The position numbers and the translations under genes are program-made. 32,000 bases of DNA from Psychrobacter sp. DM4. GTDB lineage: Bacteria > Pseudomonadota > Gammaproteobacteria > Pseudomonadales > Moraxellaceae. The stretch spans positions 1,290,001 through 1,322,000 of the forward strand of contig NZ_CP195536.1 of NCBI RefSeq assembly GCF_051307035.1, in the 5' to 3' direction. The notes beneath the pieces are model-generated. The model made no database searches. It was not told the DNA's origin and saw only the letters and a list, made by a program, of their open reading frames with translations. Each line of letters starts with the position of its first letter. Position 1 is the first letter of the stretch. Positions 13,022 to 30,413 of the stretch are shown here, piece by piece.

Positions 13022-13380
13022 TTTTTTGCATCCCTCATAATGACAAGCAGTATTTTTAATTCAAGTAAACACCTTGTAAGGCATACTCGAATAATACCCA
13101 ACATCAGACAGGTATACAATCATATATTGACATATATAAGAGTTTTAAATTTTTCTTAACAGTAATTTGACTACTATTCATACATACTAAAACTAAAATC
13201 AGTAGTAGCAACGTTAAATAGATGATTTGGGTACAAGAATGGGTGATAGAAGTTTGATTTTTAAGATAGAAAAGTGCTTTGATATAATAGGTATCGTATT
13301 CAGTATGATGATATAAGACAAAATATTTTGAGGAGCCGCTAGTAGGGCGATCACATTAAGAGGAGCCGCTGAGAATAAAA

Positions 13381-13425
13381 GTAGCTGTTAACTATGAAAT
13401 GATAAATTATATAGTTAGCAGCTGC
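13381..13425 (-). terminator. Candidate terminator downstream of the redoxin gene
   Basis: The 15-bp arms GTAGCTGTTAACTAT / ATAGTTAGCAGCTGC have two mismatches on the minus-strand RNA. They are followed on the minus strand by TTTTATTCT. Confidence 0.45.
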
Positions 13426-13442
13426 TATCTTATCAATGTCAC

Positions 13443-13982
13443 TTAACCATGGGTACCGCGGATAGGGTAGTCGTTTTCTCGGATAAAGGACAAGCCATTG
13501 GCAAGCGCTTCAAGCTCAGGTCTTGCAAAAGGAGCGTTTGAGATATCAATAATGTGAATCTCGCCTTTAGCATTAATTACAAATACACCTGGCTCAGCAA
13601 AGGGATGATCGGTTTCTTTTTCTGAACGCGGATCAGAGATATAAAGTCCTAACGTGTTCATCTGCTCAACGGTCAAGCCATAAGCCATCGGGAAGGTGAC
13701 ATCCTCTAGTTCTTCTAAATGCGCTTGCAACTGCTGTTTGCTATCGCCTGATATAGCAAGAATATCTACGCCTGCATCAGCAAATGATTCTTTTACAGTT
13801 TCTAACTGGTTAAGGTATTTGGTGCAGATTGGGCAATGTTTACCGCGATAGACCACTACTAGCTTCCAGTCATGACCGTTTTCAGGCTTACCTAATGTTG
13901 TCATGTCACCATTTAACATTTGTACCTGAATGTCAGGGAATTGACTGCCAGCCTGGAGTTTTTGAGGGTTATTTGATTGCAT
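13443..13982 (-). CDS. Peroxiredoxin-like / AhpC-TSA family thioredoxin-fold redoxin
   Basis: The 179-aa ORF has WKLVVVYRGKHCPICTKYL (a CPxC motif in the AhpC/TSA position). The Shine-Dalgarno sequence AAGGA lies 7 nt upstream. Confidence 0.78.
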   Translation of the reverse strand: MQSNNPQKLQAGSQFPDIQVQMLNGDMTTLGKPENGHDWKLVVVYRGKHCPICTKYLNQLETVKESFADAGVDILAISGDSKQQLQAHLEELEDVTFPMAYGLTVEQMNTLGLYISDPRSEKETDHPFAEPGVFVINAKGEIHIIDISNAPFARPELEALANGLSFIRENDYPIRGTHG

Positions 13983-14082: not shown

Positions 14083-14778
14083 TTAAATTTGATACTTGTC
14101 GATAATCTGATCGCTAAGCGTGACCAGATCTGAAGCTGTAACGTCTGGGGTTGGTACATTAACTGCGGGTAACATAGCATTGTGAGGACGTGTGAGAAAC
14201 GCGCCTTGACAACCAGCTGCTTGCGCCCCAATCGTATCCCAAAGATGACAGGCGACAAGACATAAATCAGACGTTTCAACCGATAATGCTTTGGCGACCA
14301 TTTGATAAGTCTCGGGCGCAGGTTTGAACTTTTCTACTGTCTCAACGCTAAACGAGCGCTCAAAGAACGCGCTTAATCCCGCCTTTTCAAGTGGCGTTGG
14401 CGAAGCACTACTCGCGGAGTTAGTTAATGTCACCAGTCTGAATCCAGCATCACGTAGTTTGGTCAACGCTGGCATGGCATCAGGGTGAGCGGGCATCTCA
14501 CTCATAAGCTGCTTAAACTCGTTAATATCTTGGTCAGTCAGCGTAATCTTGTGAATATCAGCCGTCATCTTTAAGGCACCAACACCAAGCTCACCAAAAG
14601 GTGTATACAGACTAGATAAGGTCATAGCTTGCGAATAAAGCACCAATTGCGCGAACCATTCTCTTAATATGTTCTCGTCACCAAATAAGCGAGCAAACAA
14701 AGGCGCAAGTGTTTCGATATCGAGTAGAGTCTCATTAACATCAAACACGATAACTGAAGGTAACGGAGTAGAGGACAT
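14083..14778 (-). CDS. HAD-superfamily hydrolase, type II haloacid-dehalogenase-like
   Basis: HAD motif I is VIVFDVNETLLD. The protein also has VTLTNS, EKFKPAPETY and a C-terminal cap typical of type II dehalogenases. The track start at 14784 is TTG; the ATG at 14778 has the Shine-Dalgarno sequence AAGGA 6 nt upstream. Confidence 0.78.
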   Translation of the reverse strand: MSSTPLPSVIVFDVNETLLDIETLAPLFARLFGDENILREWFAQLVLYSQAMTLSSLYTPFGELGVGALKMTADIHKITLTDQDINEFKQLMSEMPAHPDAMPALTKLRDAGFRLVTLTNSASSASPTPLEKAGLSAFFERSFSVETVEKFKPAPETYQMVAKALSVETSDLCLVACHLWDTIGAQAAGCQGAFLTRPHNAMLPAVNVPTPDVTASDLVTLSDQIIDKYQI

Positions 14779-14876
14779 ATACAATCCTTCTTATCAAGGT
14801 GAGATAGTACGAATAAGAGTCAAGTTAGTAATTAGAGTCACAACTATTACGCTATTTGGTTTCACTCTAAACGATA

Positions 14877-14899: not shown

Positions 14900-14915
14900 T
14901 TGAGCATTCACTCAA
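14900..14915. promoter_or_regulatory. Candidate TetR operator S2
   Basis: TTGAGCATTCACTCAA, 122-137 bp upstream of the HAD start codon. Confidence 0.55.
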
Positions 14916-15326: not shown

Positions 15327-15342
15327 TTGAGTAATCACTCAA
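15327..15342. promoter_or_regulatory. Candidate TetR operator S3 (autoregulatory position)
   Basis: TTGAGTAATCACTCAA, about 60 bp upstream of the TetR ATG at 15403. The flanking CAAGATAAA(A/T)TTGAG is shared with S2. Confidence 0.55.
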
Positions 15343-15402
15343 ATTGTACCGCTGTACTTGTCTCATTATTTGTGGTCACAGCTTTTAGCATCAGGATTTA
15401 CT

Positions 15403-16011
15403 ATGTCACGAACTACTTTATACAATCGTCATGAGGCGTTAGAGCGCGCTATAGCCCTATTCTGGCACAAAGGCTTCCATGCCACCTCGCTAAAGGATAT
15501 CGAACAAGCCTTAGATATGCGTCCGGGTAGCATTTACGCCGCTTTTGGCAATAAGGATGGCTTGTTTCAAGAAGCGCTGGATTATTATGCGCAGTCCTCA
15601 CTCAATGAGCTTGAACGTATACTCGCCACTCATCAGTCGCCTTTGTTAGGATTAGCCGCTTTTATGCGTCAGCTTGGCGGTATTCGTGACAAGGGATTAC
15701 CTAGTCGGGCTTGTATGCTGGTCAAAAGCTTACTAGAGCTTGGCGTACGCGAACAATTAGCCTTAGATAAGGTCGAAAAATTACTAGCGGGCATGGAGGC
15801 GCGTTTTGCCGAGTGTTTTGCTGAGGCGCAGCGATTAGAGGAGTTAGATGATACCCTTGATGCGACTAGGCTGGCGCGTCGATTACAGGCTGAGGTAATG
15901 GGTTTGCGTGCCTTCGCTCAGCGTGATGTTGAGAGTTCTGCGGTGCATGAGCTCGCTGAGGATATGGCATTATCTTTAGAGGCGCTGCAAATAGACGCTA
16001 ATAAGATATAG
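15403..16011 (+). CDS. TetR/AcrR-family transcriptional regulator
   Basis: The N-terminal helix-turn-helix reads ALERAIALFWHKGFHATSLKDIEQALDMRPGSIYAAFGNKDGLF. The track start at 15358 is TTG; the ATG at 15403 has AGGA upstream. Confidence 0.85.
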   Translation: MSRTTLYNRHEALERAIALFWHKGFHATSLKDIEQALDMRPGSIYAAFGNKDGLFQEALDYYAQSSLNELERILATHQSPLLGLAAFMRQLGGIRDKGLPSRACMLVKSLLELGVREQLALDKVEKLLAGMEARFAECFAEAQRLEELDDTLDATRLARRLQAEVMGLRAFAQRDVESSAVHELAEDMALSLEALQIDANKI

Positions 16012-16764: not shown

Positions 16765-16794
16765 AATGCCGCCTAAAAATTTTTAAGCGGCATT
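16765..16794. terminator. Hairpin between the AhpD-like and DoxX-like genes (possible partial terminator)
   Basis: AATGCCGC-(14 nt AT loop)-GCGGCATT. The T-run on the minus strand is weak (CTTGTT). Confidence 0.35.
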
Positions 16795-16840
16795 GATAGG
16801 CTATCGAAGGCATTATGGCAACGCTTAAGTCGCCGTACTA

Positions 16841-17395: not shown

Positions 17396-17502
17396 ATAGG
17401 GTCCTTGTGAGTCTCTAAGTTTATGAATATTTAAATGAGTATCTAAGTTTGATTGATTGAAATCAGTGAAGAGGTATTGGTCTTTATTCGCTAACTGAGC
17501 CC

Positions 17503-17531
17503 ACTATAAATCATTTTGAGCAATCGCTCAA
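17503..17531 (-). promoter_or_regulatory. Candidate sigma70 promoter of the AhpD-like gene, overlapped by operator S4
   Basis: On the minus strand, the -35 TTGAGC (plus 17526-17531) is followed by a 17-nt spacer and the -10 TATAGT (plus 17503-17508). Confidence 0.4.
17516..17531. promoter_or_regulatory. Candidate TetR operator S4
   Basis: TTGAGCAATCGCTCAA, with perfect 6-bp arms. Confidence 0.55.
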
Positions 17532-17538
17532 TTTATAT

Positions 17539-17554
17539 TTGAGTGATTGCTCAA
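17539..17554. promoter_or_regulatory. Candidate TetR operator S5
   Basis: TTGAGTGATTGCTCAA, 23 bp centre-to-centre from S4. Confidence 0.55.
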
Positions 17555-17725
17555 ATATTTGTAACGGCTGTTTGTGTTACTGATAGTTTATGACAGCTCA
17601 AAGCGTTTCAACTACTCATGTAACGGCAGGGGGTTTAAAAATGAAAATATTGGGGCTTATTGTTAAACATTGTAGAGTGTAATAGCGGCATGAAGAATGA
17701 GAATAAAAGCTCGGTATTGGTATAA

Positions 17726-18469
17726 TTACTTTTTATTGTCTTTTTCTATAGTGGCCAAAAATGCGGCAAACCCTTCACTTGCTCGAGCTTGTAAGCGGCT
17801 GCTAGTAGTCACGCGGACGCGGTTACTCCAAGTAATTACGTAATTTTTCTTCTCAAATTTTTTAACTAAATCCACATCTTCATGGCATTGAAGGGCTGCA
17901 AAACCCCCAACAGCAATATAGGTCTCACTACTAAAGCTTAAGTTTGCCCCATGAATATGACGATGGTTCATTGTGTCTTGGTAATGAGCCAAATAGTCGT
18001 CACGCGTTTTAGGTGTCAGATGCGCCCAGCTATCGACACTGACTACGCCGCAAATCATATCAGTAGATTGGCTATTAATAGGCAGGTCAGTGATATGAGC
18101 CATTTGCTGCTCTAGCCACTCTGTAGCTACTAGAGTGTCGGCGTCAGTGCAAGCGATCCAAGTTGCACCCTGAGCGATTGCATGACGAACTCCCAAATCA
18201 CGCACCTGTCCCACACACCGATAATCACAGCTTATATAATCGATCCCAGCATCTTTGACTAACGATAGCGTGTCATCGGTGCAGCTATCTAGAACCACTA
18301 GCGTATTGACAGTAATGGTTGAGGGTAACCGTTCAATCGCAGTTTGCACTGATGCCAAACAATCGCTGATAGTCAACTCCTCATTGTGCGCAGGAATAAC
18401 AATAGCGATGTTCATATTAGGCGCGTCTTGTTTGTCTGTCTGATATCGCTTATCTGTGTCATCTATCAT
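17726..18469 (-). CDS. Small soluble family-2 glycosyltransferase (GT-A fold)
   Basis: The N-terminal NIAIVIPAHNEE..LVVLDSCTDDT and the DxD motif CTDADT are present. The preferred start at ATG 18469 forms an ATGA overlap with the upstream stop. The track's longer start at 18514 would overlap the upstream gene by 49 nt. Confidence 0.78.
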   Translation of the reverse strand: MIDDTDKRYQTDKQDAPNMNIAIVIPAHNEELTISDCLASVQTAIERLPSTITVNTLVVLDSCTDDTLSLVKDAGIDYISCDYRCVGQVRDLGVRHAIAQGATWIACTDADTLVATEWLEQQMAHITDLPINSQSTDMICGVVSVDSWAHLTPKTRDDYLAHYQDTMNHRHIHGANLSFSSETYIAVGGFAALQCHEDVDLVKKFEKKNYVITWSNRVRVTTSSRLQARASEGFAAFLATIEKDNKK

Positions 18470-19263
18470 GTTAGGTTTTCTTGCATAGCGACGGACGCAG
18501 GGGAGTGCTGCCAAATATCTAACAAAAAATCGCTATCAATAATCTGACTCTGATGCGAAAAGGCTAAGTGTTCTGTGTGATTAGCTGATACATTGAACGC
18601 TTGCTGCAAGCGTTGGTGCACTATATCTCCCGTCATATCAAAACCATCGATAGCATAGCGCCAATGACAACAGAGTAAAGTACCGTCTACCGCTAAGTTT
18701 TGTTTCACCCACAAGATGACACTATCAACATCAGCGGGCGATAAGTAATATAGAATCTCGCTGATGACGATTAAATCAAAAGCCGTTTTATTAGTGAGAC
18801 TAGTGTCTGACAAAGGATAAGCGTACAGAGGTGACTCTGCTAAAGTCGATAAGGCATGAGGAATAATGCCATGTATCACCTTGATATGTGACAAGGCTTT
18901 CAGGCGTTGTTTGGCATGTTGTACTGCATTGGCGTTACCATCTATACTGACCAATGCCTGACAACGGTGCGCAAGGCATTCACTAAACACGCCATTACCG
19001 CAGCCCAATTCAATAGCGTTGTTATACTTAGCTTGTGGCAATACCGCAAGACACATATCGCGTTTTCGCTTTTCATACCAGCGGGTCTGGTACTGCCAAG
19101 GATCGCTACTGTCGCTATACAATGCATCAAAATATGTCTGTGAGTAGGCACCGGATTCAGTGCAGTCTATTGAGGTGGTATAAGAGGTATTTGAGCCGTC
19201 ACTATTATCTGTTTCAGGGTGGTCGTGACTCATTACCGTTGTAGATCTAGGATTGCAGCTCAT
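18466..19263 (-). CDS. Class I SAM-dependent methyltransferase, NodS-like
   Basis: SDPWQYQTRWYEKRKRDMCL..AIELGCGNGVFSECLAHRCQALVSIDGNANAVQHAKQRL follows the NodS-family pattern (DPW ... E-x-GC-x-x-G-x-F ... ID). The start at 19263 is preferred because the Shine-Dalgarno sequence GGGAGG lies 9 nt upstream. The track's start at 19377 lies deep inside the upstream gene. Confidence 0.75.
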   Translation of the reverse strand: MSCNPRSTTVMSHDHPETDNSDGSNTSYTTSIDCTESGAYSQTYFDALYSDSSDPWQYQTRWYEKRKRDMCLAVLPQAKYNNAIELGCGNGVFSECLAHRCQALVSIDGNANAVQHAKQRLKALSHIKVIHGIIPHALSTLAESPLYAYPLSDTSLTNKTAFDLIVISEILYYLSPADVDSVILWVKQNLAVDGTLLCCHWRYAIDGFDMTGDIVHQRLQQAFNVSANHTEHLAFSHQSQIIDSDFLLDIWQHSPASVAMQENLT

Positions 19264-20083
19264 GCAAATAAACCTCCCAAGGTTGACTGATTCTAGCGAT
19301 GGTTTGTGCTGATAAAATGGGCGGATTGCCTGTACTCTGATCGGTGCTAATTTGACTGGTAAAGCAGGTAATGGCATGAGACTTACGCCGTACTTGCTCG
19401 GCAGTTAAGTCCACTCTGAGAGCGAGATGCCAAGGAACCCGGCTATCAGCAGGTTTAGCCCAGTGCCATGCCCAGATCAAGACTTGATAGCAGGGTAAAT
19501 GATGCAGCTTGGCATAGGCTTTGACGACTTGTCCTGTAGCCTCATGATCAGGATGTCCATCATGAACAAAGGGCGTCACCAAAATATCGTTAGGACGGAT
19601 AATGGTTGCTAGTTTTTTCTTAAACAATTCTCGCTCGGCGAACACCTTACCATCAGTGAGCTTAAGAGTAATAGTGGATACTTGAGGCGCGACACCAAGC
19701 GCTTTTAAGGCGTTCATGCTTTCTTGCGGGCGAATAGTATTGAGGCGCTCTGGTGGATAAATCTCTGAGTTTGGATGGCTTTGAGTGCCATTGGTTACGT
19801 GTACAAGGAGGATGGGGGTGCCATTAACGGCTAAATGCTGGAGCAAGCCGCCACAGCCTAGTATCTCATCATCAGGGTGCGGGGCAAAAATACATACTCT
19901 CGTAAGTGCTGTGATGTTTATCGCTATATCTAACGGCGGTAAATTGTGCAGTTCTTGCCAGTTCTGCCATGCGTCTTGACTGGTTCCATCCCCTTCAATC
20001 ACACGATCACCAACAATCGGATGGTCGTGTTTGATAACACTATCTTTTAGAGACTCAATATTACTAGGTATTATAGTTGCCAT
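19247..20083 (-). CDS. PIG-L / LmbE-family zinc de-N-acetylase
   Basis: The family motifs FAPHPDDEILGCGG and HDGHPDHE (zinc ligands) are present. The Shine-Dalgarno-like AGGGA lies 5 nt upstream. Confidence 0.85.
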   Translation of the reverse strand: MATIIPSNIESLKDSVIKHDHPIVGDRVIEGDGTSQDAWQNWQELHNLPPLDIAINITALTRVCIFAPHPDDEILGCGGLLQHLAVNGTPILLVHVTNGTQSHPNSEIYPPERLNTIRPQESMNALKALGVAPQVSTITLKLTDGKVFAERELFKKKLATIIRPNDILVTPFVHDGHPDHEATGQVVKAYAKLHHLPCYQVLIWAWHWAKPADSRVPWHLALRVDLTAEQVRRKSHAITCFTSQISTDQSTGNPPILSAQTIARISQPWEVYLHELQS

Positions 20084-21192
20084 ATATATCCCTGCCCGTT
20101 TGTTGCATCGCCTGATAAGCGATTGGCTGATTCACTAGTCAGCTCGCCAATTTTTTGTAGATCAAAAGCGCCATGACTTTGGCGAATAAACACAGGCAGA
20201 TCGGCGGCCAGTCTTGCAAAATGTGCATTATTACAAAATGGCGCAGCGCCCAATGCTTGTCCGACACTCTCTAGCACTTGCCTTGCTACTTGCTCAGTGC
20301 TTGCTCTGAGTTGGCGAATAGTCAGCTCATGGCTATGCTGCGGCTGGGCGTCAATGACGCGCGCCATATGATGAAAGGACTGCTGAGTCGCTGCTAATGC
20401 TATGCTGATTTGACCTAAATACATCGCCTTATAATTACAAGGTTTTTGCTGATAGGCAAGTACCAAGTAATCGGCCAAAGAAATAGCGGCTCCATACCAG
20501 CAAGCGGCCACCCCAGCGGCTCCATGCCAGAATCCTGCTCTATTTAAATAGGCATTCGCTGTGCCTACTTGCTCAGCTGTAACTTTATTAAACTGTACTA
20601 TGGCTGTATCAGTGGCTTGCATACCGACTGCTTGCCAGCCCCTATAATCACTCTCAATGCCCTCTTGCTGCATATCGACCAAAAGCAGCTGCGCATGACC
20701 GTTCTTGTCTCGATAGCTCATTAGCCCATAATCGACAATAGCTGCGCCTGAACACCACGCCTTGGTGCCATTCACTATGCCATGCTGACTAAATTTGTCT
20801 TGCTCAAAGCTGAGGGGATGGCCCTCTGCTGCCCAAACCGCAAGCAGTCCCTTAATAGGTTTATCGTAGCCTAGTTCCTGCAGTATACTTAGCGCATCTA
20901 AATGAGATTCAAACCATTTGGCAAGTGTCAAATCAACGCCGGCGACATAAGCTAAGATTTGCCAGCGCTTAAGTGTATGAGCAAGTAGTTCGTTCTCGCT
21001 GGTAGGATGTAGGACATTCTCACTATGCGTAACCAGGATATATAGTATGTCACAGCGCAACTTATCAGTAAGATTACGCGTACTTCGCGCCTGATAATCA
21101 GCGGCTATTTTTCTTTCTACAGCCGCTTTTATAGTCTGCAATAAAGGGTTTTTTACAATCACTATAGTGTGCTCCCAGTTATGCTTATCCAT
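20071..21192 (-). CDS. Acyl-CoA dehydrogenase-fold flavoprotein of unknown substrate
   Basis: The 373-aa ORF has a mid-region KAWCSGAAIVDYGLM and WQAVGMQATDTAIVQFNKV, typical of the ACAD beta-domain. The C-terminus reads DLPVFIRQSHGAFDLQKIG where canonical ACADs have IYEGT. Confidence 0.72.
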   Translation of the reverse strand: MDKHNWEHTIVIVKNPLLQTIKAAVERKIAADYQARSTRNLTDKLRCDILYILVTHSENVLHPTSENELLAHTLKRWQILAYVAGVDLTLAKWFESHLDALSILQELGYDKPIKGLLAVWAAEGHPLSFEQDKFSQHGIVNGTKAWCSGAAIVDYGLMSYRDKNGHAQLLLVDMQQEGIESDYRGWQAVGMQATDTAIVQFNKVTAEQVGTANAYLNRAGFWHGAAGVAACWYGAAISLADYLVLAYQQKPCNYKAMYLGQISIALAATQQSFHHMARVIDAQPQHSHELTIRQLRASTEQVARQVLESVGQALGAAPFCNNAHFARLAADLPVFIRQSHGAFDLQKIGELTSESANRLSGDATNGQGYIWQL

Positions 21193-22783
21193 TCAATTTA
21201 TGAGCAGGGTCTGTATGAGCGCAGTCCCCAGATATGCTTTTAGTTTGAGACTTTTTATTGCTATATAAATCCTCTAAAAAGTCTTGCTGCCAGGCGTGAA
21301 TATCATAGTCCTGTAACCCTGCTAACAGCGTTTGATGACGATCTTTTCGTTCTGAGAGCGGCATCATCAGGGCGATCTTTAAGCCTTGTATCATACTCTT
21401 AGTCTGATGTGGATCTATTGTGACCGCTGCCTGCATTTGTGCAGCGGCTCCAGCATATTTGGAGAGTAATAGAACGCCAGGATTATCAGGATTTTGCGCT
21501 GCGACATATTCCTTGGCAACCAGATTCATGCCATCTTTGAGCGAGTTTACCCAGCCAATATCGCTTTGCCAAAACGCTCTCATCAAGCTGTCATGGTTGA
21601 GTACCTTTTCGCTATAAGCAATGGCTTGCCTTTGATGTGTTTGACAGTCTTGAGTACCGTTATGAATACAGCTACTGGGTAATAAGCTGTGATGACTACT
21701 TTTGACCATTTTTTTGACGTCATCATAAAGCTGCTGATAAACAGGTAAATCTAAGCGGCTTGGGCATGCCACTTGTAATAGTTGCAACTGATTTTGATAA
21801 ATCGGGTACTGCTGAAGAAAATGGACATACGCTGAGAAGCGCTCCAACAAACCTTTAGAGTAATCAATCCTATCTACTGCTATGATTTGCTGCGCTACTG
21901 ACTTAATAGCCTTGTTGTCAGGGTTAGATGTTGGGTTTTTGCAAGATAAATGACGAACCCGATTTTGGATTTTGTTTACATTGATGCCAATAGGGTAAGC
22001 CTTGATACTCAGGCAGTGCAGCGGTGCTAAACTTGTATCAACTCTAAAGTGAGTTCTATCGGATTTTATAGTCCTAAAAGAGCTTTGCTGGATATATGGG
22101 AGGGTTGAGGACGAAAGTCTTGGTCGGGTCTTTATAGTGCCTTTCATGTAATATTTTAACACGTCAACACCATTGGCTTTATCTTGTTCAGTTTGTGTAC
22201 CAAGCACATCATAATGAGCAAGATGCTCTATTAGCTGCCCACTTTGAGCAAGCTTTTGCCACAATAGAAGAGGAGCAAATGGGATGTGCAAAAAAAAGCC
22301 GATACGGTTTTTTATACCAAGTTTGCGGCAATAATAAGCCACGCTCAAAAAGTGATAATCATGTACCCAAATCACATCATCTGGCTGAACAACCTTTTGT
22401 AATTGCTGAGCAAAAAGATGGTTCACCATCTGGTAACCTGCATAATCATCATCGGCTTGACTCACCAAATCAGGGCGCTCATGCAGTAATAGCCACAGTA
22501 CACTATTAGCAAAACCACAATAAAAGTGCTGGTATTGCTTGCGTGTGAGCGCTGTGGTCACATAGGTAATGTCTCTATCTGCTGCACGTGTTGATATCGT
22601 CCGTTTACTCGTACCAAATGCGTTGATAGTATCATCACAAGCGTCGATAACCTTACCATTCCAGCCCATCCAAATTACTGAGTTACCTACCAATATATCG
22701 TCTAATGCTACGGCAAGGCCGCCTGCCGCCTGTGCATCATCAGGCATTTTTACTCGATTAGATAAGACGATTAATCGGCTCAT
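21185..22783 (-). CDS. otsA: Alpha,alpha-trehalose-phosphate synthase (UDP-forming), GT20
   Basis: MSRLIVLSNRV...AGGLAVAL, IWVHDYHFL, RIGFFLHIPF, VDRIDYSKGL and KDGMNLVAKEYVAAQ all follow the OtsA pattern. At 532 aa it is longer than the ~474-aa E. coli enzyme. Confidence 0.9.
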   Translation of the reverse strand: MSRLIVLSNRVKMPDDAQAAGGLAVALDDILVGNSVIWMGWNGKVIDACDDTINAFGTSKRTISTRAADRDITYVTTALTRKQYQHFYCGFANSVLWLLLHERPDLVSQADDDYAGYQMVNHLFAQQLQKVVQPDDVIWVHDYHFLSVAYYCRKLGIKNRIGFFLHIPFAPLLLWQKLAQSGQLIEHLAHYDVLGTQTEQDKANGVDVLKYYMKGTIKTRPRLSSSTLPYIQQSSFRTIKSDRTHFRVDTSLAPLHCLSIKAYPIGINVNKIQNRVRHLSCKNPTSNPDNKAIKSVAQQIIAVDRIDYSKGLLERFSAYVHFLQQYPIYQNQLQLLQVACPSRLDLPVYQQLYDDVKKMVKSSHHSLLPSSCIHNGTQDCQTHQRQAIAYSEKVLNHDSLMRAFWQSDIGWVNSLKDGMNLVAKEYVAAQNPDNPGVLLLSKYAGAAAQMQAAVTIDPHQTKSMIQGLKIALMMPLSERKDRHQTLLAGLQDYDIHAWQQDFLEDLYSNKKSQTKSISGDCAHTDPAHKLNG

Positions 22784-23730
22784 GACTTTGATCTCAGTGT
22801 ATTTGAGTTCATTGATACAGGACTATCTGGGTGAGAGAGGAGAGACGCTTGTGCTTGAAAAAACTTCAAAAAATGATGGAGTAAGACGACAACGTCATCA
22901 GTATCATGCAAATAAAAGCGGGCGTAAGTAGGCTCTTCACCTACCTTGATGCCCATACCCTTTGTCAAGTGTTGATAGTAGTGCTCAGATTTACCCTCCT
23001 TCTCGTCAATGACGCCGCTAGGATTCTGCACAGCCAAAAACCCTGCTTCATCCGTAATATCGTCACCCAAAAAAATAGGACAAAGCGTATCAACAGCTGG
23101 TAGTCCTTGTAGCAAAGTTAAAATCGCTGTACCTTTGTTCACGCCCTCTGGGACTATCTCCCAAACAAACTTACCTTGTTTTAAGCACCAATTAGGATAG
23201 TTATTGCTCACCTTTTCCATGAGATTATAAGCGACATCAGCCAAGGCAGGGTTTTGGCGATAGTGCAAAGCAACAGAGTAAGGTTTATCCTCCAAAGTAA
23301 AATCAGCATATGGCGCGCACAGTGCAATAATGATCTGCTTTATATCATTGAGCTCACTGGGGTCGACAGGTACAGCGGTCGTAGACTCATCATTATTAAG
23401 GCTACTATTTAAGCCGTTATTGGGTACTATCTCTAAACCATGCGTAGCTGCTATTGGCAATACTAAGGGCGATAGCATCTTTTGTGCCTCAACCAGACTG
23501 CGACCTGTGACAACCGCAATGCTAACACCCAAGCTCTGTATCTGTTGCAATAGCGTCAAAGTGGTGATGGGAATAATGCTGTCTTTTGGGTCAAGGGTAA
23601 AGGTAGCCAGTGTACCGTCTATGTCCAAAAACAGACAGTACTTCTTATTGTAAGATAAATGGTCAGCGATTTTGTTTGGCTGAAGGTGTATAGGCGATGT
23701 ATTTACGCTAGAGTCAGGTGCAGGAGTCAT
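22780..23730 (-). CDS. otsB: Trehalose-6-phosphate phosphatase (HAD IIB)
   Basis: LFLDIDGTLATFTLDP (motif I), VVTGRS and FLGDDITDE (motif IV) are present. The Shine-Dalgarno sequence AAGGA lies 6 nt upstream. The stop forms an ATGA overlap with the otsA start. Confidence 0.88.
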   Translation of the reverse strand: MTPAPDSSVNTSPIHLQPNKIADHLSYNKKYCLFLDIDGTLATFTLDPKDSIIPITTLTLLQQIQSLGVSIAVVTGRSLVEAQKMLSPLVLPIAATHGLEIVPNNGLNSSLNNDESTTAVPVDPSELNDIKQIIIALCAPYADFTLEDKPYSVALHYRQNPALADVAYNLMEKVSNNYPNWCLKQGKFVWEIVPEGVNKGTAILTLLQGLPAVDTLCPIFLGDDITDEAGFLAVQNPSGVIDEKEGKSEHYYQHLTKGMGIKVGEEPTYARFYLHDTDDVVVLLHHFLKFFQAQASLLSHPDSPVSMNSNTLRSKS

Positions 23731-24402
23731 ATTTATTCCTTTAGTAGAACGTGACGTCAGAGCTAATACGATGAAGGGTTGTAATGAGATATGTGTAGAT
23801 TAGGGCGTGTTTTATCAGTCGACCGTAATACTGACAGAAGCTATTTTTTAGACAATACCATTAAAAACAGCAAGTTTAGATATTCTAAGCGTCTACTGTT
23901 GACAAGTAGGTGGAAAAAACAGTCTCTGTCTGTGTACTTATACTACGTTGTAAACCGAGTTAAAGCACGAGCATTACCGTCGTTTTAGGCTTGGTCTGGA
24001 ACAGTTTTGGTAATCAGCGATGCCTACTCGCGAAAGATCAAACACGCTTTGAGTATTTATGGACAAAATAGCACAAAACTTGTAATAAGTTTGCCACAGT
24101 GCACAGGCAAAAATACGCAATGGCGTATAGATTTTATTAGTATTAGTCCTTTAATTCAATAAACTCTAGTTTGACAATTTGAGTATAAACATACTTATTG
24201 TTAGGAGCATAAGAGAGCTGACACCGCGTCTGGTTACAATCAGATCGTCACATAACTTCTTGCGCAGATGATGAATAGACACCTTTGTTGCACTAAGCGT
24301 GGGTCGTTCCACTGATCTTTTTTAACTGTATAACGCATTATTGATAGTAAGGAAGATGACGATATGAGCATCCCTCCCAGCTCACAGCTTATTGACGTAT
24401 TT

Positions 24403-24432
24403 ATTTAATAGTAATATTAATTACTATTAAAT
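24403..24432. promoter_or_regulatory. Perfect 13-bp inverted repeat (30 bp total) overlapping a candidate promoter upstream of the beta-oxidation operon
   Basis: ATTTAATAGTAAT-ATTA-ATTACTATTAAAT. TTGACG at 24392-24397 followed by a 17-nt spacer places a -10-like TATTAA at 24415-24420, at the dyad centre. Confidence 0.4.
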
Positions 24433-24518
24433 AAATATCGATTGCAACCCTATACTTACTATCCTAGTATATGACCTATGATTTGGTGGATAGGAGCGAT
24501 GACCAAGCTCGATATTAG

Positions 24519-24534
24519 GGTAATTATAATTACC
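24519..24534. promoter_or_regulatory. Perfect 16-bp palindrome 87 bp upstream of the ACAD start codon
   Basis: GGTAATTATAATTACC is fully self-complementary. Confidence 0.3.
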
Positions 24535-24620
24535 ATTTATTTTAACGCTTGGTATTACCGCTGCTTTGTACTGCAAAATATTTCTATTAGCACAAGCTAA
24601 CATCGCCAAGGATAAAGGTT

Positions 24621-25772
24621 ATGAGCATTGAAAATTTAGCCCCAAACTGGATGACTGAAGAGCGTAAAATGGTCTATGAGAGTGCGCTTAAAATGTTTCA
24701 AGGCTGGGAGCCAAATGATGAGAAATGGCGTAAGAATGGCATGATCGATCGCAAGGCTTGGGAGGAGGCTGGCGAGAACGGTTTTTTATGTGCCTCAATG
24801 CCCGAAGAATATGGCGGCGGCGGCGGCGATTTTCGTGATGAAGTTGCGATTATCTATGCACAAGCAGAATCTAATCAGTCAGGTTTTGGCGGTATCGTTC
24901 ACTCAGGCATCGTAGCCCCCTATATCTTAGGTCATGGTACTGATGAGCAAAAACAAGAGTGGCTACCCAAAATGGCGACGGGCGAGTATATCGCAGCCAT
25001 CGCTATGACAGAACCTGGCACCGGTTCTGATTTGCAAGCGCTTAAGACTTACGCGGTAAAAGATGGCGATGACTACATTATCAATGGCTCAAAAACTTTT
25101 ATTACCAATGGTCAGCATGCTAATTTGATTGTGGTAGCCTGTAAGACAGACCGTGACAAAGGCGCTCAAGGTGTCTCCCTTATCGTCGTAGAGACTGATG
25201 CTCTAGAAGGATTTGAGCGCGGTCGTAATCTCGATAAAGTTGGCCTGTCGTCACAAGATACCTCAGAGCTTTTCTTTAGTAATATGCGTGTACCACAAAA
25301 GAACCTGCTCGGTCCGATAGAAGGGATGGGCTTTATTCAGATGATGCAAGAGTTGCCGCGTGAGCGCTTGATTATTGCACTGACAGGTATCGGCGCGATG
25401 AAGCTGGCTATTAATCTGACTCTTGATTATGTCAAGCAACGTGAAGCCTTTGGCAAACCCGTTTGGAGATTTCAAAATACCAAATTCAAAATGGCGGAGT
25501 GTTATGCCAATTATCTAGCTGCTCATAGCATGTGTGATCTGGCGATAGATGCCATCATGGAGAATAGACTGTCTATTCCTCATGCCTCATTGATCAAATA
25601 CTGGGTCACTGAAAAGCAGTGCGATGTGATCGATGAATGTGTGCAGTTATTCGGTGGTTATGGTTATATGAATGAGTATCCTATCGCCCGTCTATACGCT
25701 GATGCGCGGGTGCAAAAAATCTACGGCGGCACCAACGAGATTATGAAAGAGCTAGCTGCCCGCTTTATGTAA
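24621..25772 (+). CDS. Acyl-CoA dehydrogenase, LCAD-like
   Basis: The 383-aa ORF has EEYGGGGGDF, AMTEPGTGSDL, INGSKTFITNG and the C-terminal KIYGGTNEIMKEL, which carries Gly at the usual catalytic-Glu position as in long-chain and isovaleryl type ACADs. The Shine-Dalgarno sequence AAGGA lies upstream. Confidence 0.92.
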   Translation: MSIENLAPNWMTEERKMVYESALKMFQGWEPNDEKWRKNGMIDRKAWEEAGENGFLCASMPEEYGGGGGDFRDEVAIIYAQAESNQSGFGGIVHSGIVAPYILGHGTDEQKQEWLPKMATGEYIAAIAMTEPGTGSDLQALKTYAVKDGDDYIINGSKTFITNGQHANLIVVACKTDRDKGAQGVSLIVVETDALEGFERGRNLDKVGLSSQDTSELFFSNMRVPQKNLLGPIEGMGFIQMMQELPRERLIIALTGIGAMKLAINLTLDYVKQREAFGKPVWRFQNTKFKMAECYANYLAAHSMCDLAIDAIMENRLSIPHASLIKYWVTEKQCDVIDECVQLFGGYGYMNEYPIARLYADARVQKIYGGTNEIMKELAARFM

Positions 25773-25883
25773 TTTGCTTTATGCCAAAGATGTCGCTGGA
25801 TTTATTAATCAAGTCATCTAGTTGTTTATTCCATGTACTATCCATTAATTTGTTACCTATCCAAAAAGTAAAAAGGGATTTTT

Positions 25884-27092
25884 ATGACTGAGACCGCTTA
25901 TATCTATGACAGTATCCGTACCCCACGTGGTAAAGGTAAAAAAGACGGCGCTTTATACCAAGCGTCGCCTATATGGCTGGTGCGTGGCTTGTTAAAAGAG
26001 ATGCAGCAGCGCCATAACTTGGACACCAGCTTGGTGGATGATGTGGTGCTGGGCTGCGTGACTCCCGTGGGCGAGCAGGGTTCTGACATTGCTCGTACTG
26101 CGGTCCTTGATGCCGGCTGGGCGCAGAGCGCGGCGGGTTTAACGTTATCTCGATTCTGCGCCTCAGGACTTGAGTCTATTAACCTTGCTGCGGCCAAAGT
26201 CATGTCGGGCATGGAGGATTTAGTCGTCGCAGGCGGCGTTGAGTCTATGAGCCGTGTGCCTATGGGTTCTGATGGTGGTGCGTGGTACATGGATCCACGA
26301 GTCAATGAAGCGACTGGCTTCGTACCACAAGGGGTTGGCGCTGACACAATAGCCACGCTCAATGGCTTTAGTCGCCGCGATGTTGACGCGTTCGCTACTG
26401 AGTCGCATCGCCGCGCTGCTAACGCTTGGGAGCAGGGCTATAATAATAAGTCAGTCGTGCCCGTCACAGACATTAACGGTATGTTGTTATTGGATAAAGA
26501 TGAGACTATCCGTCCGAATACCACGGTTGAGACCTTAGCAGGGCTAAACCCCTCTTTTGTGATGCCCGGTCAGATGGGTTTTAACAGTGTTATTTTGGAT
26601 AAGTACACCACTATCGAAAACGTAAACCACGTGCATCATGCGGGCAACTCATCAGGTATCGTTGATGGTGCGGCGATATGCTTGGTCGGTAGCGCTGCTG
26701 CTGGCAAAAAAGCGGGTCTTACGCCGCGTGCCAAGATCACTATGGCCTCCGTCATCGGCTCAGAACCCGCTATCATGCTAACGGGTCCAACACCCGCTTG
26801 CCATAAAGCGCTCAAAAAAGCGGGTATGAGCGCCTCTGATATTGATCTTTGGGAGATCAATGAAGCCTTTGCCGCCGTTCCTATGAATACCGCTCATGAC
26901 CTAGGTATCTCGCTTGATATTGTCAACGTCAATGGCGGCGCTATTGCTATGGGTCATCCGCTGGGTGCTACGGGCGCTATGCTCATGACTACCGTACTCG
27001 ATGAGCTAGAACGCCGCGACCTCAAAACCGCTATGCTCACCTTGTGCGTCGGTGGCGGTATGGGTATTGCGACTATCATTGAGCGAGTATAA
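25884..27092 (+). CDS. Acetyl-CoA C-acyltransferase (3-ketoacyl-CoA thiolase)
   Basis: The thiolase active-site motifs [29 protein letters not shown] and LCVGGGMG are present. Confidence 0.93.
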
Positions 27093-27148
27093 CCTCTCTA
27101 TTTACCAAAATAAAAATGATAACTTTGAGATCATTTAAAGGATAAAAA

Positions 27149-29329
27149 ATGACTACAAATACAGACAGCATTGACGCTATAAACACTCTAGCTAATTTTT
27201 CAGCGCAGCGTGATAATGACGGTATCGTCACCGTCACTATCGATCAAAGCGATCGCAAAATGAACGTGATAGGCGATGGGTTTACTGACGCTTTTGCCAC
27301 TTTGACGGACAGCTTTATTAATGATGAGTCTGCTAAGGGCTTAATCTTAACCTCAGCAAAAGACAGCTTCGTGGTTGGCGCGGATATCGATCAGCTCTCT
27401 AACATTGAAACTGCCAAGCAAGCATTTGATCTGGTCGAAGACTTAAAAGCCTGCCTACGTAAACTTGAGAGCGAAGGTAAACCTGTGGTCGCTGCTATGA
27501 CTGGCACCGCATTAGGTGGCGGGCTTGAGCTGGCGTTAGCCTGTCACTATCGTATAGCGATTGACTCGCCAAAGACTAAGCTGGGTCTACCAGAAGTTAA
27601 GCTAGGATTGCTGCCAGGTGGCGGCGGTACTCAGCGCCTGCCACGGCTTGTTGGTATCCAAAAAGCGCTTGAGCTGATGACGCAAGGGGTTGAGCTACGG
27701 GCTAAAGCGGCCTTAGATATTGGTCTTATTGATGCAACAGCTACTGATAACGATGATATGGTAGCGCAAGCGAAAGAGTGGATAAAAGCCAATCCCAAAG
27801 TACAACAACCTTGGGACAAAAAAGGCTTTAAAATCCCAGGCGGTAACAGCATGCATCCCAAAGTGGTGCAAGTGTTCTCTATCGCGCCTGCCATGGCCAA
27901 TCAAAAGTCGCATGGCAATTATCCTGCGATCACGCATATCATGTCTAGCGTCTTTGAAGGCTGCATCGTCGATATCGATACCGGTCTTGAGCTTGAGTCG
28001 CGCTTTTTTGCCGCTTGTGTCTTATCGCCTGAATCTAGAAATATGATCAATACCCTTTGGACGCAGCTCAATAGCATCAAAAAAGGTCAATCTCGTCCCG
28101 ATGGCGTTGAGCGCTATAAAACCAAAAAGGTCGGCATTTTAGGCGCAGGTATGATGGGCGCAGGTATTGCTTATGTCAGTGCCAAAGCAGGACTAGAGGT
28201 CGTATTGCTCGATACCGAATTGGCAGGTGCTGAAAAAGGCAAAGCCTACTCTACAAACCTCCTAGATAAAGCCATCAGTCGTAAACGCTCTACTGAAGAC
28301 AAGAAGCAAGCGCTACTGGATCGTATCAAGCCGACCGTCTCTTATGACGATCTAGCAGATTGCGATTTAATCATTGAAGCGGTGTTTGAGAACCGTGAAA
28401 TCAAAGCCAAGTGTACGCAGCAGTCCGAAGCCGTGATTCCAGAATCAGCGGTTTATGCGTCTAACACCTCAACCTTGCCTATTACCGGATTGGCCCAAGC
28501 AAGCAAACGTCCTCAGCAGTTTATTGGTTTACATTTCTTCTCGCCCGTCGACAAGATGCCGCTGGTTGAAATCATTGTCGGCGAAAAAACTGACGATGAT
28601 ACCTTAGCCAAAGCTTTTGATTATGTATTGCAAATCGGCAAAACGCCAATCGTCGTCAATGACAGTCGCGGGTTTTATACTTCGCGCGTATTCGGCACTT
28701 ATGTGTCAGAAGGCGTCACCATGTTAGGCGAGGGCGTACATCCGCGCAGTATCGAAGTTGCTGGTATGAAAACCGGCATGCCTATGCCGCCACTAGCGCT
28801 ACAAGATGAGGTGTCACTAAGCTTAGCCTTGCTTGTGAGCGAGCAGCAGCAAAAGGATATGCAAGCGGAAGGCAAAACCATGCCAATGCGTCCGTCGTAC
28901 GATATTCTCAAAACTTTAGTCAAAGAGCATGACCGTGAAGGTAAAAAGAACGGCAAAGGCTTTTATGAGTATCCCGATAAAGGCGATAAGCACTTATGGC
29001 CTGAGCTGGTGAACTTATATCCCACAAGCGCTGAGCAGCCAAGCCAAGAGGACTTGGTAGATCGTTTGATGTTTATTCAAGCTAACGAGTCGGCTAAGTG
29101 TTTTGAAGAAAATGTCGTGCGCTCTGTCGCTGATACCAATATCGGCTCTATCTTTGGTTGGGGTTTTGCGCCGCATCAAGGCGGTACATTACAGTTCATT
29201 AATTCTATGGGTGTCAAGCAATTTGTAGCTCGTAGTCGTGAACTTGCCAAGCAGTATGGCGAACGTTTTGAGCCAGCTAACATCTTGGTAGAGATGGCGT
29301 CAAGTGGCGAGGATTTCGTAGATGGCTAA
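27149..29329 (+). CDS. Bifunctional enoyl-CoA hydratase / 3-hydroxyacyl-CoA dehydrogenase (FadB/FadJ type)
   Basis: The 726-aa ORF has an N-terminal crotonase fold (AAMTGTALGGGLELALACHYRIA) followed by the NAD-binding VGILGAGMMGAGIA and the HFFSPV motif. Confidence 0.92.
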   Translation: MTTNTDSIDAINTLANFSAQRDNDGIVTVTIDQSDRKMNVIGDGFTDAFATLTDSFINDESAKGLILTSAKDSFVVGADIDQLSNIETAKQAFDLVEDLKACLRKLESEGKPVVAAMTGTALGGGLELALACHYRIAIDSPKTKLGLPEVKLGLLPGGGGTQRLPRLVGIQKALELMTQGVELRAKAALDIGLIDATATDNDDMVAQAKEWIKANPKVQQPWDKKGFKIPGGNSMHPKVVQVFSIAPAMANQKSHGNYPAITHIMSSVFEGCIVDIDTGLELESRFFAACVLSPESRNMINTLWTQLNSIKKGQSRPDGVERYKTKKVGILGAGMMGAGIAYVSAKAGLEVVLLDTELAGAEKGKAYSTNLLDKAISRKRSTEDKKQALLDRIKPTVSYDDLADCDLIIEAVFENREIKAKCTQQSEAVIPESAVYASNTSTLPITGLAQASKRPQQFIGLHFFSPVDKMPLVEIIVGEKTDDDTLAKAFDYVLQIGKTPIVVNDSRGFYTSRVFGTYVSEGVTMLGEGVHPRSIEVAGMKTGMPMPPLALQDEVSLSLALLVSEQQQKDMQAEGKTMPMRPSYDILKTLVKEHDREGKKNGKGFYEYPDKGDKHLWPELVNLYPTSAEQPSQEDLVDRLMFIQANESAKCFEENVVRSVADTNIGSIFGWGFAPHQGGTLQFINSMGVKQFVARSRELAKQYGERFEPANILVEMASSGEDFVDG

Positions 29330-30413
29330 TAATGATATTTCAAATACATCAGCTATTAGTCAGATGAGCGATTGCTTACAAGGATTGCGCATCATAGATT
29401 TGACGCGCAATCTGCCGGGGCCTTTTGCCACGCGTCTGCTTGCTGATTTGGGTGCAGATATCATCAAAATCGAGCCCAAAGGTGGCGATCCTGCTCGCGC
29501 CTTGGGTGGATTGTTTGATGCCTTGAACCACGGTAAAACAATCGAAAAGGTCGATTTTCGTGATGAAAAGGGCATAGCGTCAGTCAAAGAGCACCTCAAA
29601 AATGCTGATGTTATGCTCGATAGCTTTCGCCCTGGAGTGCTAAAGGGTATGGGTTTGGACGCCCAAACCTTGCATGCAATAAACCCAAAGTTAGTTATCG
29701 TCTCAATCACAGGCTATGGCATGGTTGATGGCAGCGACGTGACTCACGACTGGGCGGACAAAGCCGGTCACGATATCAACTTTATGGCGATGAGTGGCGT
29801 ACTCGATCAGCTGCGTACCGCAACTGGCGAACAGGCTATGCCCAACGTCCAGTTCGCAGATTTGGCAGGCGGTAGTGATACGGCAGTGATTGCCTTGCTA
29901 GCAGCGGTTTTTGCCGCTCAGCGCACGGGTAAAGGTCGCCATGTTGCAGTTAGTATGACGCATAGTTTATACAATCACATGGTTATGCCAAAGGCGACAG
30001 GTACGCTAGTTAAAAGCTTCTCAGGTCAGAATCCACCGCCTCAGCATGACTTTTTGGGTGGACTGCTACCGTGCTACCGCTTATACAAAACCTCAGATGA
30101 TCGTTACATGGCAGTGGGTTCATTGGAACTTAAGTTCTGGCAAGGATTGTGTGAGGTTCTAGAGCTATCTGAGCTCAAAGACGCGCATTGGCAGCGCGGT
30201 GTGATGCCAAACCTGCCTGCTAGCAAAGAGGCCGCCGCCAAAGTCACTGAAAAGTTTGCCAGTCAACCGCTTGAGTTTTGGCAGCAAGCTTTTAAATTAG
30301 CTGATGTTTGCGTCACTCCTGTTTTGAGCTTAGAAGAGGCTAAGGCGCATCCACTATTTGCTCATCAAGACGAGCATGACAGCACGATAGGATGGCAAGA
30401 TATTAAGTCATGA
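29322..30413 (+). CDS. CaiB/BaiF family III CoA-transferase fold, alpha-methylacyl-CoA racemase-like
   Basis: The N-terminal GLRIIDLTRNLPGPFATRLLADLGADIIKIEP is family III. AGHDINFMAMSGVL and FADLAGGS match the racemase His/Asp active-site motifs (GHDINY..., AD-x-GG) as I recall them. The gene overlaps the upstream stop by 8 nt. Confidence 0.75.
   Translation: MANNDISNTSAISQMSDCLQGLRIIDLTRNLPGPFATRLLADLGADIIKIEPKGGDPARALGGLFDALNHGKTIEKVDFRDEKGIASVKEHLKNADVMLDSFRPGVLKGMGLDAQTLHAINPKLVIVSITGYGMVDGSDVTHDWADKAGHDINFMAMSGVLDQLRTATGEQAMPNVQFADLAGGSDTAVIALLAAVFAAQRTGKGRHVAVSMTHSLYNHMVMPKATGTLVKSFSGQNPPPQHDFLGGLLPCYRLYKTSDDRYMAVGSLELKFWQGLCEVLELSELKDAHWQRGVMPNLPASKEAAAKVTEKFASQPLEFWQQAFKLADVCVTPVLSLEEAKAHPLFAHQDEHDSTIGWQDIKS

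Follow-up and report, generated by a model that had tools for sequence, protein, structure and literature searches.

Six minus-strand genes lie closely packed at positions 17726-23730 of a 32,000-nucleotide stretch of the Psychrobacter sp. DM4 genome (contig NZ_CP195536.1, positions 1,290,001 to 1,322,000; hereafter the window, to which coordinates refer unless another locus is named). This block consists of the trehalose pair otsB-otsA followed by an autonomous four-gene cassette that is common to many Gamma- and Betaproteobacteria. The cassette encodes, in order, an acyl-CoA dehydrogenase (ACAD)-fold flavoenzyme-like protein, a PIG-L/LmbE-family N-deacetylase, a NodS-like S-adenosylmethionine (SAM)-dependent methyltransferase and a small soluble family 2 glycosyltransferase (GT2). 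It is repeatedly placed at the 3' end of operons of the stationary-phase or desiccation type, two of which serve non-homologous routes to trehalose. The cassette is conserved in hundreds of bacterial species and already annotated there; it is an orphan, linked to trehalose and stress loci. An earlier note on this DNA had described all six genes as a single operon. The six open reading frames (ORFs) are present at the positions given there, and the domain names assigned to them (Trehalose_PPase, Glyco_transf_20, Acyl-CoA_dh_M, PIG-L, NodS and Glycos_transf_2) are right.

The distribution of the cassette was determined by scanning a 12-sequence alignment against one genome per bacterial species, and the places found were confirmed by tblastn. 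More than 571 places were confirmed in these species-representative genomes. A search with the ACAD-like protein among 1.84 billion representative proteins returned 174 clusters (50% identity) at E < 1e-30 and 655 clusters at E < 1e-10. The cassette was found in Psychrobacter, Acinetobacter, Moraxella, many Pseudomonas, Acidovorax, Noviherbaspirillum, Paenalcaligenes, Pandoraea, Candidatus Burkholderia, Pseudoxanthomonas, Paraburkholderia and Janthinobacterium. Genomic contexts were counted in the 80 best of the more than 571 loci, probed by tblastn with the six window proteins; the order ACAD-like, PIG-L, methyltransferase, GT2 is kept in nearly all of them. Only in Moraxella osloensis and in Psychrobacter do otsB-otsA immediately precede the cassette on the same strand; in Psychrobacter the six-gene order is retained in all 10 sampled genomes at approximately 60% protein identity. 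How often the module occurs, and how often it sits beside otsBA, had been raised as a check in the earlier note. The answer does not bear out the idea of a local, otsBA-specific fusion, as the cassette is autonomous, widely annotated and common in other contexts.

By lineage, the cassette has been attached to otsBA in Psychrobacter and Moraxella, to glgA-treZ-malQ-treY-glgX in many Pseudomonas, to ligD in the putida group and to katE in the Acinetobacter lwoffii group. About 19 Pseudomonas loci, from the fluorescens and syringae groups, have it behind glgA-treZ-malQ-treY-(small ORF)-glgX; in one of them, locus L083, the ACAD-like gene begins 1 nt past glgX, and the cassette genes overlap by 4 nt at all three internal junctions. 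The gene ligD is directly upstream in at least 11 loci, mostly from putida-group Pseudomonas. In the A. lwoffii group katE is followed by a small ORF, the cassette and a major facilitator superfamily (MFS) transporter, with convergent otsA-otsB about 1.5 kb downstream of the cassette, and a locus from an Azoarcus metagenome-assembled genome reads otsA, otsB, cassette, katE. No trehalose genes were found within 10 kb of the cassette in the A. calcoaceticus-baumannii complex, Paraburkholderia or Janthinobacterium.

On a rough estimate, a cassette would fall next to a trehalose locus by chance in about 1% of cases per lineage (20-kb neighbourhood, 3-6 Mb genome). With at least four independent trehalose-adjacent arrangements, the association is thus not attributed to chance, and shared regulation and shared chemistry fit it equally. 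The link to trehalose proposed earlier is backed by these comparisons, in that adjacency to otsBA occurs in three or four arrangements and the TreY/TreZ operon precedes the cassette in the Pseudomonas loci. Because the cassette also stands behind ligD and katE, shared stress regulation explains the association no less well than trehalose chemistry.

The junctions between the genes mark the same division into a pair and a cassette. All five overlap sequences quoted earlier were read in the window as described. The genes otsB (22780-23730; 316 aa) and otsA (21185-22783; 532 aa) overlap by ATGA at 22780-22783. The ACAD-like gene (20071-21192) overlaps otsA by ATGGATAA at 21185-21192 if the ATG at 21192 is used, which gives a protein of 373 aa. 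A database protein that is 99% identical (P0001) is 363 aa long, which would put the start at GTG 21162, with a 22-nt gap after otsA. The ACAD-like and PIG-L genes (the latter 19247-20083; 278 aa) overlap by 13 nt at 20071-20083. The overlap between the PIG-L and methyltransferase genes is 17 nt, at 19247-19263, with the methyltransferase (18466-19263; 265 aa) starting at ATG 19263. The longest ORF of this gene extends to 19377 and an alternative ATG is present at 19233; the Shine-Dalgarno support claimed for 19263 was located as GGGAGG, 9 nt upstream. The last junction is an ATGA overlap at 18466-18469 if the GT2 gene (17726-18469) starts at ATG 18469 and codes for 247 aa. The identical NCBI protein from Psychrobacter sp. 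DM4 (P0416; 100% identity) has 229 aa, which would place the start at ATG 18415 and leave a 50-nt gap after the methyltransferase gene. The conserved core of the GT2 family alignment begins exactly at the position of this ATG.

Across the 80 related loci, junction distances were measured between the stop codon of one gene and the closest start codon available to the next. Inside the cassette the junctions are almost always overlaps of 4-13 nt. The ACAD-like/PIG-L distance is -4 in 48 loci and -13 in 29, the PIG-L/methyltransferase distance is -4 in 41, -11 in 11 and -8 in five, and the methyltransferase/GT2 distance is -4 in 49. The ATGA overlap of otsB and otsA recurs in nine of 12 related loci. 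At the otsA/ACAD-like junction, a spacer of +13 to +105 nt is found in 11 of the 12 other Psychrobacter and Moraxella loci that have otsA upstream. These distances indicate that overlapping codons are a conserved property of the four-gene cassette and that the otsA/cassette junction is a seam.

The six genes are close enough together for one transcription unit, as the earlier note had held, with all gaps at or below 50 nt and no convincing internal terminator. Its statement that no intergenic space exists is not secure, as two of the five overlaps hinge on the choice of start codon; what holds is that no gap exceeds about 50 nt and no terminator is predicted inside. Terminator-like matches on both strands of the 8.2-kb region scanned numbered 12, against 6.4 +/- 2.2 in shuffled sequence, and none inside the block convincingly exceeded the shuffled expectation. 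Judged by its gene geometry, the Psychrobacter block is most likely transcribed as a single six-gene unit whose promoter would lie ahead of otsB. Stoichiometric expression, which had also been claimed, goes too far, as overlapping codons suggest translational coupling but do not demonstrate stoichiometry.

Each of the cassette enzymes can be assigned to a family. The PIG-L protein scores 93.8 bits with PF02585 (cut-off 28.2). The superfamily is characterized by an HXDD+H motif that serves in metal binding and as general base (PMC4101496); the window protein fits this zinc motif with HPDD at residues 69-72 and His177/His180 about 105-110 residues further on, and thus belongs to the superfamily. 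Diacetylchitobiose deacetylases are its closest solved relatives and BshB1 and BshB2 its best NCBIfam matches, although the score with the BshB models is far under their cut-off (60 vs 182.5). These nearest relatives are deacetylases of N-acetylglucosamine (GlcNAc) glycosides.

The methyltransferase matches PF05401 (NodS) with 53.4 bits (cut-off 24) and carries the SAM motif I, ELGCGNG, which makes it a member of the Pfam NodS family; against the NodS equivalog NF041650 it reaches 70, compared with a cut-off of 300. Its solved relatives are 4isc, an uncharacterised methyltransferase (7e-30), NodS 3ofj (3e-11) and the gentamicin 3''-N-methyltransferase (3e-4). NodS and GenN methylate amines of amino sugars. 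The GT2 protein has a Pfam match (PF00535, 55.4 bits; cut-off 23.3), a DxD motif (DAD) and GT-A fold matches, all of which place it in the family. It carries TDAD and HED(V)D; neither Asp of TDAD nor the ED in HED varies among 23 homologues. In its AlphaFold2 (AF2) model (predicted local distance difference test, pLDDT, 89.1), which has the GT-A fold, the neighbours are 6p61, WrtF, AvpGT and TarS/TarP. The model points to a generic soluble GT-A enzyme whose structural neighbours include small-molecule and GlcNAc transferases, a resemblance that does not reveal donor or acceptor.

The sole Pfam match of the ACAD-like protein is a marginal one, to Acyl-CoA_dh_M (35.1 bits; cut-off 33.3). No N- or C-terminal ACAD domain was matched in Pfam, so that not all three domains of acyl-CoA dehydrogenases proper are recognisable in the sequence; the true ACAD encoded nearby at 24621-25772, in contrast, matches all three. 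The AF2 model of the cassette protein (pLDDT 92.7) has four predicted helices ahead of the beta-domain, and the N-terminal domain is presumably shortened relative to canonical ACADs. The best solved matches by Foldseek and profile search are 5gj7/5z8t, DszC/TdsC and the nitrososynthases DnmZ, ORF36 and KijD3, which are amino-sugar N-oxygenases; true ACADs come close behind, and template modelling (TM) scores are about 0.7. These ACAD-fold flavin monooxygenases share the fold and are among the best profile matches, and TdsC also shares a K-x-(F/W)-C-S-G motif, in that GxKxWCSGA of the cassette protein aligns with GTKAFCSGSA; identity, however, is just 13-17%. The family-invariant residues are R76, E95, H97, G142, S148, Y215, R218, W232 and R296, and the family alignment has no invariant C-terminal Glu. 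Among the 120 relatives listed for this protein, all those with a source name are from Psychrobacter.

None of the four cassette proteins has a membrane segment or signal peptide, and all four are predicted to be soluble; the GT2 enzyme has no hydrophobic segment, its maximum 19-residue Kyte-Doolittle hydropathy (KD19) being 0.93. Among all six proteins of the block no clear membrane segment was found, the highest 19-residue hydropathy being 1.64, in OtsB. All four cassette proteins score below the trusted cut-offs of the NCBIfam equivalogs. In the full-text literature searched, no functional study or product assignment was found for the cassette, which is mentioned there only in expression tables and STRING analyses. 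The earlier view that the four appended enzymes have no product that can be named is thus upheld.

Two known pathways share part of this logic. In Nod-factor synthesis a GlcNAc glycoside is de-N-acetylated and the freed amine is N-methylated. The cassette has the same chemical logic as the NodC/NodB/NodS steps, its methyltransferase falls in Pfam NodS, and NodS is the second-closest solved relative of that enzyme. However, the cassette GT2 is small and soluble whereas NodC is a membrane chitin-oligomer synthase, the deacetylase is PIG-L rather than the CE4 type of NodB, there is no NodA acyltransferase, and the hosts are not rhizobia; no nodA, nodB or nodC was found in the window or the related loci. 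Mycothiol and bacillithiol synthesis (MshA/MshB, BshA/BshB) similarly begins with a soluble glycosyltransferase, which builds a GlcNAc glycoside on a small acceptor, and a PIG-L enzyme with the same zinc motif, which deacetylates it. There the glycosyltransferase is GT4 rather than GT2, and the cassette has no cysteine ligase, with a methyltransferase and a flavoenzyme instead. Membership in either pathway was rejected because defining components are absent, and equivalog scores are far under the cut-offs.

The closest characterised relatives of the PIG-L, methyltransferase, ACAD-like and GT2 proteins, taken together, suggest a sequence of N-acetylhexosamine transfer, deacetylation, N-methylation and oxidation. 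By family resemblance, the small GT2 enzyme would transfer an N-acetylhexosamine from a nucleotide sugar onto a small acceptor, the PIG-L enzyme would take off the N-acetyl group, the NodS/GenN-like methyltransferase would methylate the freed amine, and the presumed ACAD-fold flavoenzyme would oxidise the product, for example by N-oxygenation as in nitrososynthases. The order of the steps could differ, with modifications made on the nucleotide sugar ahead of transfer. The pathway would yield an N-modified amino-sugar glycoside in the cytoplasm, formed together with trehalose when cells face osmotic, cold, desiccation or stationary-phase stress. As acceptor, trehalose or one of its precursors would be the leading candidate, but shared regulation alone could also account for the linkage. 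Judged from sequence, the chances are about even that the cassette makes a separate, co-regulated stress metabolite on an acceptor not specified.

Several points weigh against this reading. The resemblance on which the pathway is built goes no further than the family level. True acyl-CoA dehydrogenases match the ACAD-like protein almost as well as the monooxygenases do, both in fold and in profile, and the choice between a monooxygenase and a dehydrogenase reaction is therefore not settled. No flavin-reductase-like gene was found in the operon or among the annotated conserved neighbours, although one could be encoded elsewhere. In roughly half of the loci sampled, no trehalose gene lies within 10 kb, and some loci, such as L084, have no adjacent GT2 gene. 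The 80 loci are those most similar to the query, so that Moraxellaceae and Pseudomonas are over-represented among them. Finally, an internal promoter may lie within otsA or the 22-nt spacer.

The alternative that survives best, tentative as it is, makes the six genes one pathway in which OtsA and OtsB act first. The cassette would act on trehalose, trehalose-6-phosphate or maltooligosyl-trehalose and yield an amino-sugar-decorated or N-methylated trehalose derivative. It is co-oriented right behind two non-homologous trehalose routes, namely otsBA and, with the 1-nt gap past glgX, TreY/TreZ, and trehalose is the sole product common to both. The nearby otsBA arrangements of the A. lwoffii group and Azoarcus point the same way, as does the STRING co-occurrence of OtsB with an A. 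baumannii blsA neighbourhood that holds cassette genes (PMC9948694). Against this, the cassette also lies behind ligD and katE and occurs on its own in Paraburkholderia, Janthinobacterium and the A. calcoaceticus-baumannii complex, there is a seam at the spacer that follows otsA, and neither the sequence nor the model of the GT2 enzyme gives any sign of a disaccharide acceptor. It is doubtful that the cassette represents a new class of stress protectant, an N-methylated and possibly N-oxygenated amino-sugar glycoside on trehalose that would be made alongside trehalose and aid desiccation, cold or osmotic tolerance in Psychrobacter, Moraxella, Acinetobacter (including A. baumannii) and plant-associated Pseudomonas.

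The closest real relatives of the window cassette are the orthologous cassette of A. baumannii and the treYZ-linked cassette of Pseudomonas, both equally uncharacterised. In A. baumannii, ACICU_02432-02435 code for a glycosyltransferase, a SAM-methyltransferase, an LmbE protein and an acyl-CoA dehydrogenase-related protein and are listed as one operon (PMC5660220). All four were down 31-62-fold, together with the flanking ACICU_02431 and ACICU_02436, in colistin-dependent mutants deficient in lipopolysaccharide (LPS) (PMC5660220). The DUF2171 gene A1S_2230/ACICU_02436 is reported to be extremely highly expressed and to go down 138-227-fold with the cassette in LPS-deficient mutants. A DUF2171 protein of 76-86 aa is encoded on the minus strand divergently adjoining the cassette in four of the studied loci of the A. 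calcoaceticus-baumannii complex (L022, at 9512-9745, L025, L027 and L028). Since the published A1S_2230/ACICU_02436 sequence (PMC6330354) matches this divergent ORF, ACICU_02432-02435 are taken to be orthologous to the studied loci. They share the four families, the order and the overlapping junctions, with 39-55% identity to the window in the A. pittii and A. calcoaceticus loci, but have no otsBA within 10 kb and the divergent DUF2171 gene upstream instead. The STRING analysis of BlsA lists LmbE, a glycosyl transferase and a methyltransferase as neighbourhood partners and OtsB as a co-occurrence partner (PMC9948694).

In Pseudomonas, PSPTO_3125-3130 is a characterised trehalose/alpha-glucan locus with an established role in osmotic and desiccation tolerance (PMC8982409). 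This glgA-treZ-malQ-treY-x-glgX operon resembles the block of the window in having the ACAD-like, PIG-L, NodS-like and GT2 genes behind it on the same strand, without a gap and with 4-nt overlaps. It differs in making trehalose from glycogen by the TreY/TreZ route rather than by OtsA/OtsB, and many of its loci add a second PIG-L paralogue and a gene of the endonuclease/exonuclease/phosphatase family. Published deletions reach glgX and stop short of the cassette. The additional pair is conserved just downstream in loci where the cassette lies behind glgX (L083, at 13190-13948 and 18430-19212; also L050, L052, L062 and L070-L078), and may represent accessory steps absent from Psychrobacter. The small ORF between treY and glgX, at the position of PSPTO_3129 (L032, at 7070-7513; L047; L052), codes for a protein that is rich in Lys, Ala and Pro and apparently disordered; it has a conserved FAYQIWESEGKP motif at the N-terminus and recalls desiccation proteins of the hydrophilin type. 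DnpA/PA5002, a PIG-L protein of P. aeruginosa, was dropped as a possible counterpart; it is listed alone, and the four-gene cassette is not in evidence there.

The A. baumannii expression data also bear on a second alternative, an unlikely one, in which no free solute is made and the target of the cassette enzymes is a macromolecule or a part of the envelope (such as lipooligosaccharide, peptidoglycan, a glycoprotein or alpha-glucan). The collapse of expression in LPS-deficient A. baumannii (PMC5660220) would agree with it, but in the same table many unrelated stress genes show the same drop. The database name of the GT2 protein, 'glycosyltransferase involved in cell wall biosynthesis', points the same way but is generic, as such names are here. 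Among the structural neighbours of this enzyme are TarS/TarP, which are GlcNAc transferases of wall teichoic acid, and WrtF, an O-antigen enzyme, and the neighbouring genes in Pseudomonas make alpha-glucan. Yet the four proteins are without membrane segment or signal peptide, and the conserved neighbours of the cassette include no flippase, polyprenyl-phosphate enzyme or export gene. That the juxtaposition is functionally meaningless, a mobile or shuffled accessory unit (for instance for detoxification or catabolism of N-acetylated sugars) having landed behind otsBA by chance, is very improbable, for although the flanks of the six-gene block vary among Psychrobacter species and PIG-L enzymes also act in catabolism (diacetylchitobiose deacetylase), the six-gene order is constant in Psychrobacter, independent placements behind stress operons recur across several lineages, no transposase or repeat borders the block, and a biosynthetic glycosyltransferase is a poor fit to catabolism.

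A separate co-regulated stress metabolite, the preferred reading, would bear on an active topic, since desiccation and osmotic tolerance is studied in A. baumannii on hospital surfaces, in Pseudomonas syringae on leaves and in Psychrobacter in cold, salty habitats, and trehalose is central to tolerance in all three. That four enzymes are encoded in a conserved and strongly expressed cassette, tied to trehalose and other stress operons but with no assigned product, is a concrete gap, and suggests an unrecognised amino-sugar compound in the soluble stress metabolome of the host bacteria. Mutant collections and trehalose-pathway mutants exist for some of the host species, so that the question is directly testable. 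If the cassette merely carried out co-regulated housekeeping chemistry, its significance would be modest.

The trehalose pair itself is well supported. OtsB is a trehalose-6-phosphate phosphatase by PF02358 (87.5 bits) and by the equivalog TIGR00685 (T6PP), with 120.3 bits against a cut-off of 68.05. OtsA, the UDP-forming trehalose-6-phosphate synthase, matches PF00982 with 287.7 bits over residues 18-507 and the solved trehalose-6-phosphate synthases at E = 8e-93 to 2e-80, the best solved match being 5uof. Relative to 5uof it keeps SNR, VHDYH, GFFLHIPF, VDRIDYSKG and DGMNLVAKEY; in the E. coli enzyme the stretches SNR, HDYH, DR-DYSKG and DGMNLVAKE have catalytic or substrate-binding roles. 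Its scores are under the equivalog cut-offs (TIGR02400, 423.1 vs 564.85; PRK10117, 361 vs 759), and it has two insertions relative to solved enzymes: the alignment runs in two stretches that skip residues 213-257, and the second is gapped near residues 361-390. On the retained motifs and matches, the protein is treated as a genuine OtsA and otsB-otsA as a normal phosphatase/synthase pair. The arrangement resembles the canonical otsBA operon of the E. coli type in gene order, ATGA overlap and family motifs in both proteins, and differs from it in the insertions and sub-equivalog score of OtsA and in the four further genes behind a spacer of at most 22 nt.

Upstream of otsB, an unusually long, AT-rich non-coding region of 890 bp (23731-24620) separates the block from divergent beta-oxidation genes and presumably holds the operon promoter. 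It contains no ORF longer than 65 aa, no conserved ORF and no Rfam match (search threshold E <= 1), and at the nucleotide level it does not resemble the corresponding regions of other Psychrobacter loci. One sigma-70-like site lies in it on the minus strand (24159-24131); such sites are not enriched. The divergent genes (24621-30413, plus strand) code for the three-domain acyl-CoA dehydrogenase already mentioned, a thiolase, a FadB-like enoyl-CoA hydratase/3-hydroxyacyl-CoA dehydrogenase and a family III CoA-transferase, a complete-looking set for fatty-acid beta-oxidation.

At the 3' boundary of the unit, a spacer at 17396-17725 contains two tandem palindromes (17516-17531 and 17539-17554), which as RNA would form a hairpin of -26.7 kcal/mol (z = -6.7). 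The 16-nt palindrome TTGAGCAATCGCTCAA and its variants occur in four copies (14900-14915, 15327-15342 and the tandem pair), giving seven strand-matches in the window against 0.35 expected on both strands. They flank a TetR-family gene (15358-16011), one copy lies near the start of a HAD-hydrolase ORF (14083-14784), and the tandem pair is upstream of a gene pair coding for 184 and 134 aa (17395-16214). The palindromes are thus probably TetR operator sites, putatively defining a small regulon next to the operon, and the tandem copies could also halt read-through. The inverted repeat with 17-bp arms at 17515-17555 was considered as the operon terminator and set aside; because the palindrome recurs next to the TetR gene, the repeat is more likely an operator of this regulator. 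An NsiR4-like Rfam match outside the block, at 16766-16826 on the minus strand between the 184-aa and 134-aa genes, is probably due to chance (20.5 bits, gathering threshold 40; E = 0.56).

A few observations on individual loci and on the window remain. GC content was tried as a signal of horizontal transfer and dropped, as the module (0.458) and otsBA (0.428) are not distinct from the window as a whole (0.446). In Moraxella osloensis, a gene for a cold-shock-domain protein directly follows the GT2 gene on the same strand (L020, at 13315-13566; also L021 and L023). Locus L021 (BMPS01000015.1) is labelled Streptomyces cinereus JCM 3040; its 44% GC and its identity of about 95% to L020 along most of its length make the contig almost certainly a contaminant in a Streptomyces assembly. 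Locus L035, a contig of 2.5 kb, carries the label Mycobacterium sp. MBM, but at the nucleotide level it best matches a Pseudomonas locus (73% identity). Elsewhere in the window, a very large ORF of 2011 aa lies on the plus strand at 5053-11088.

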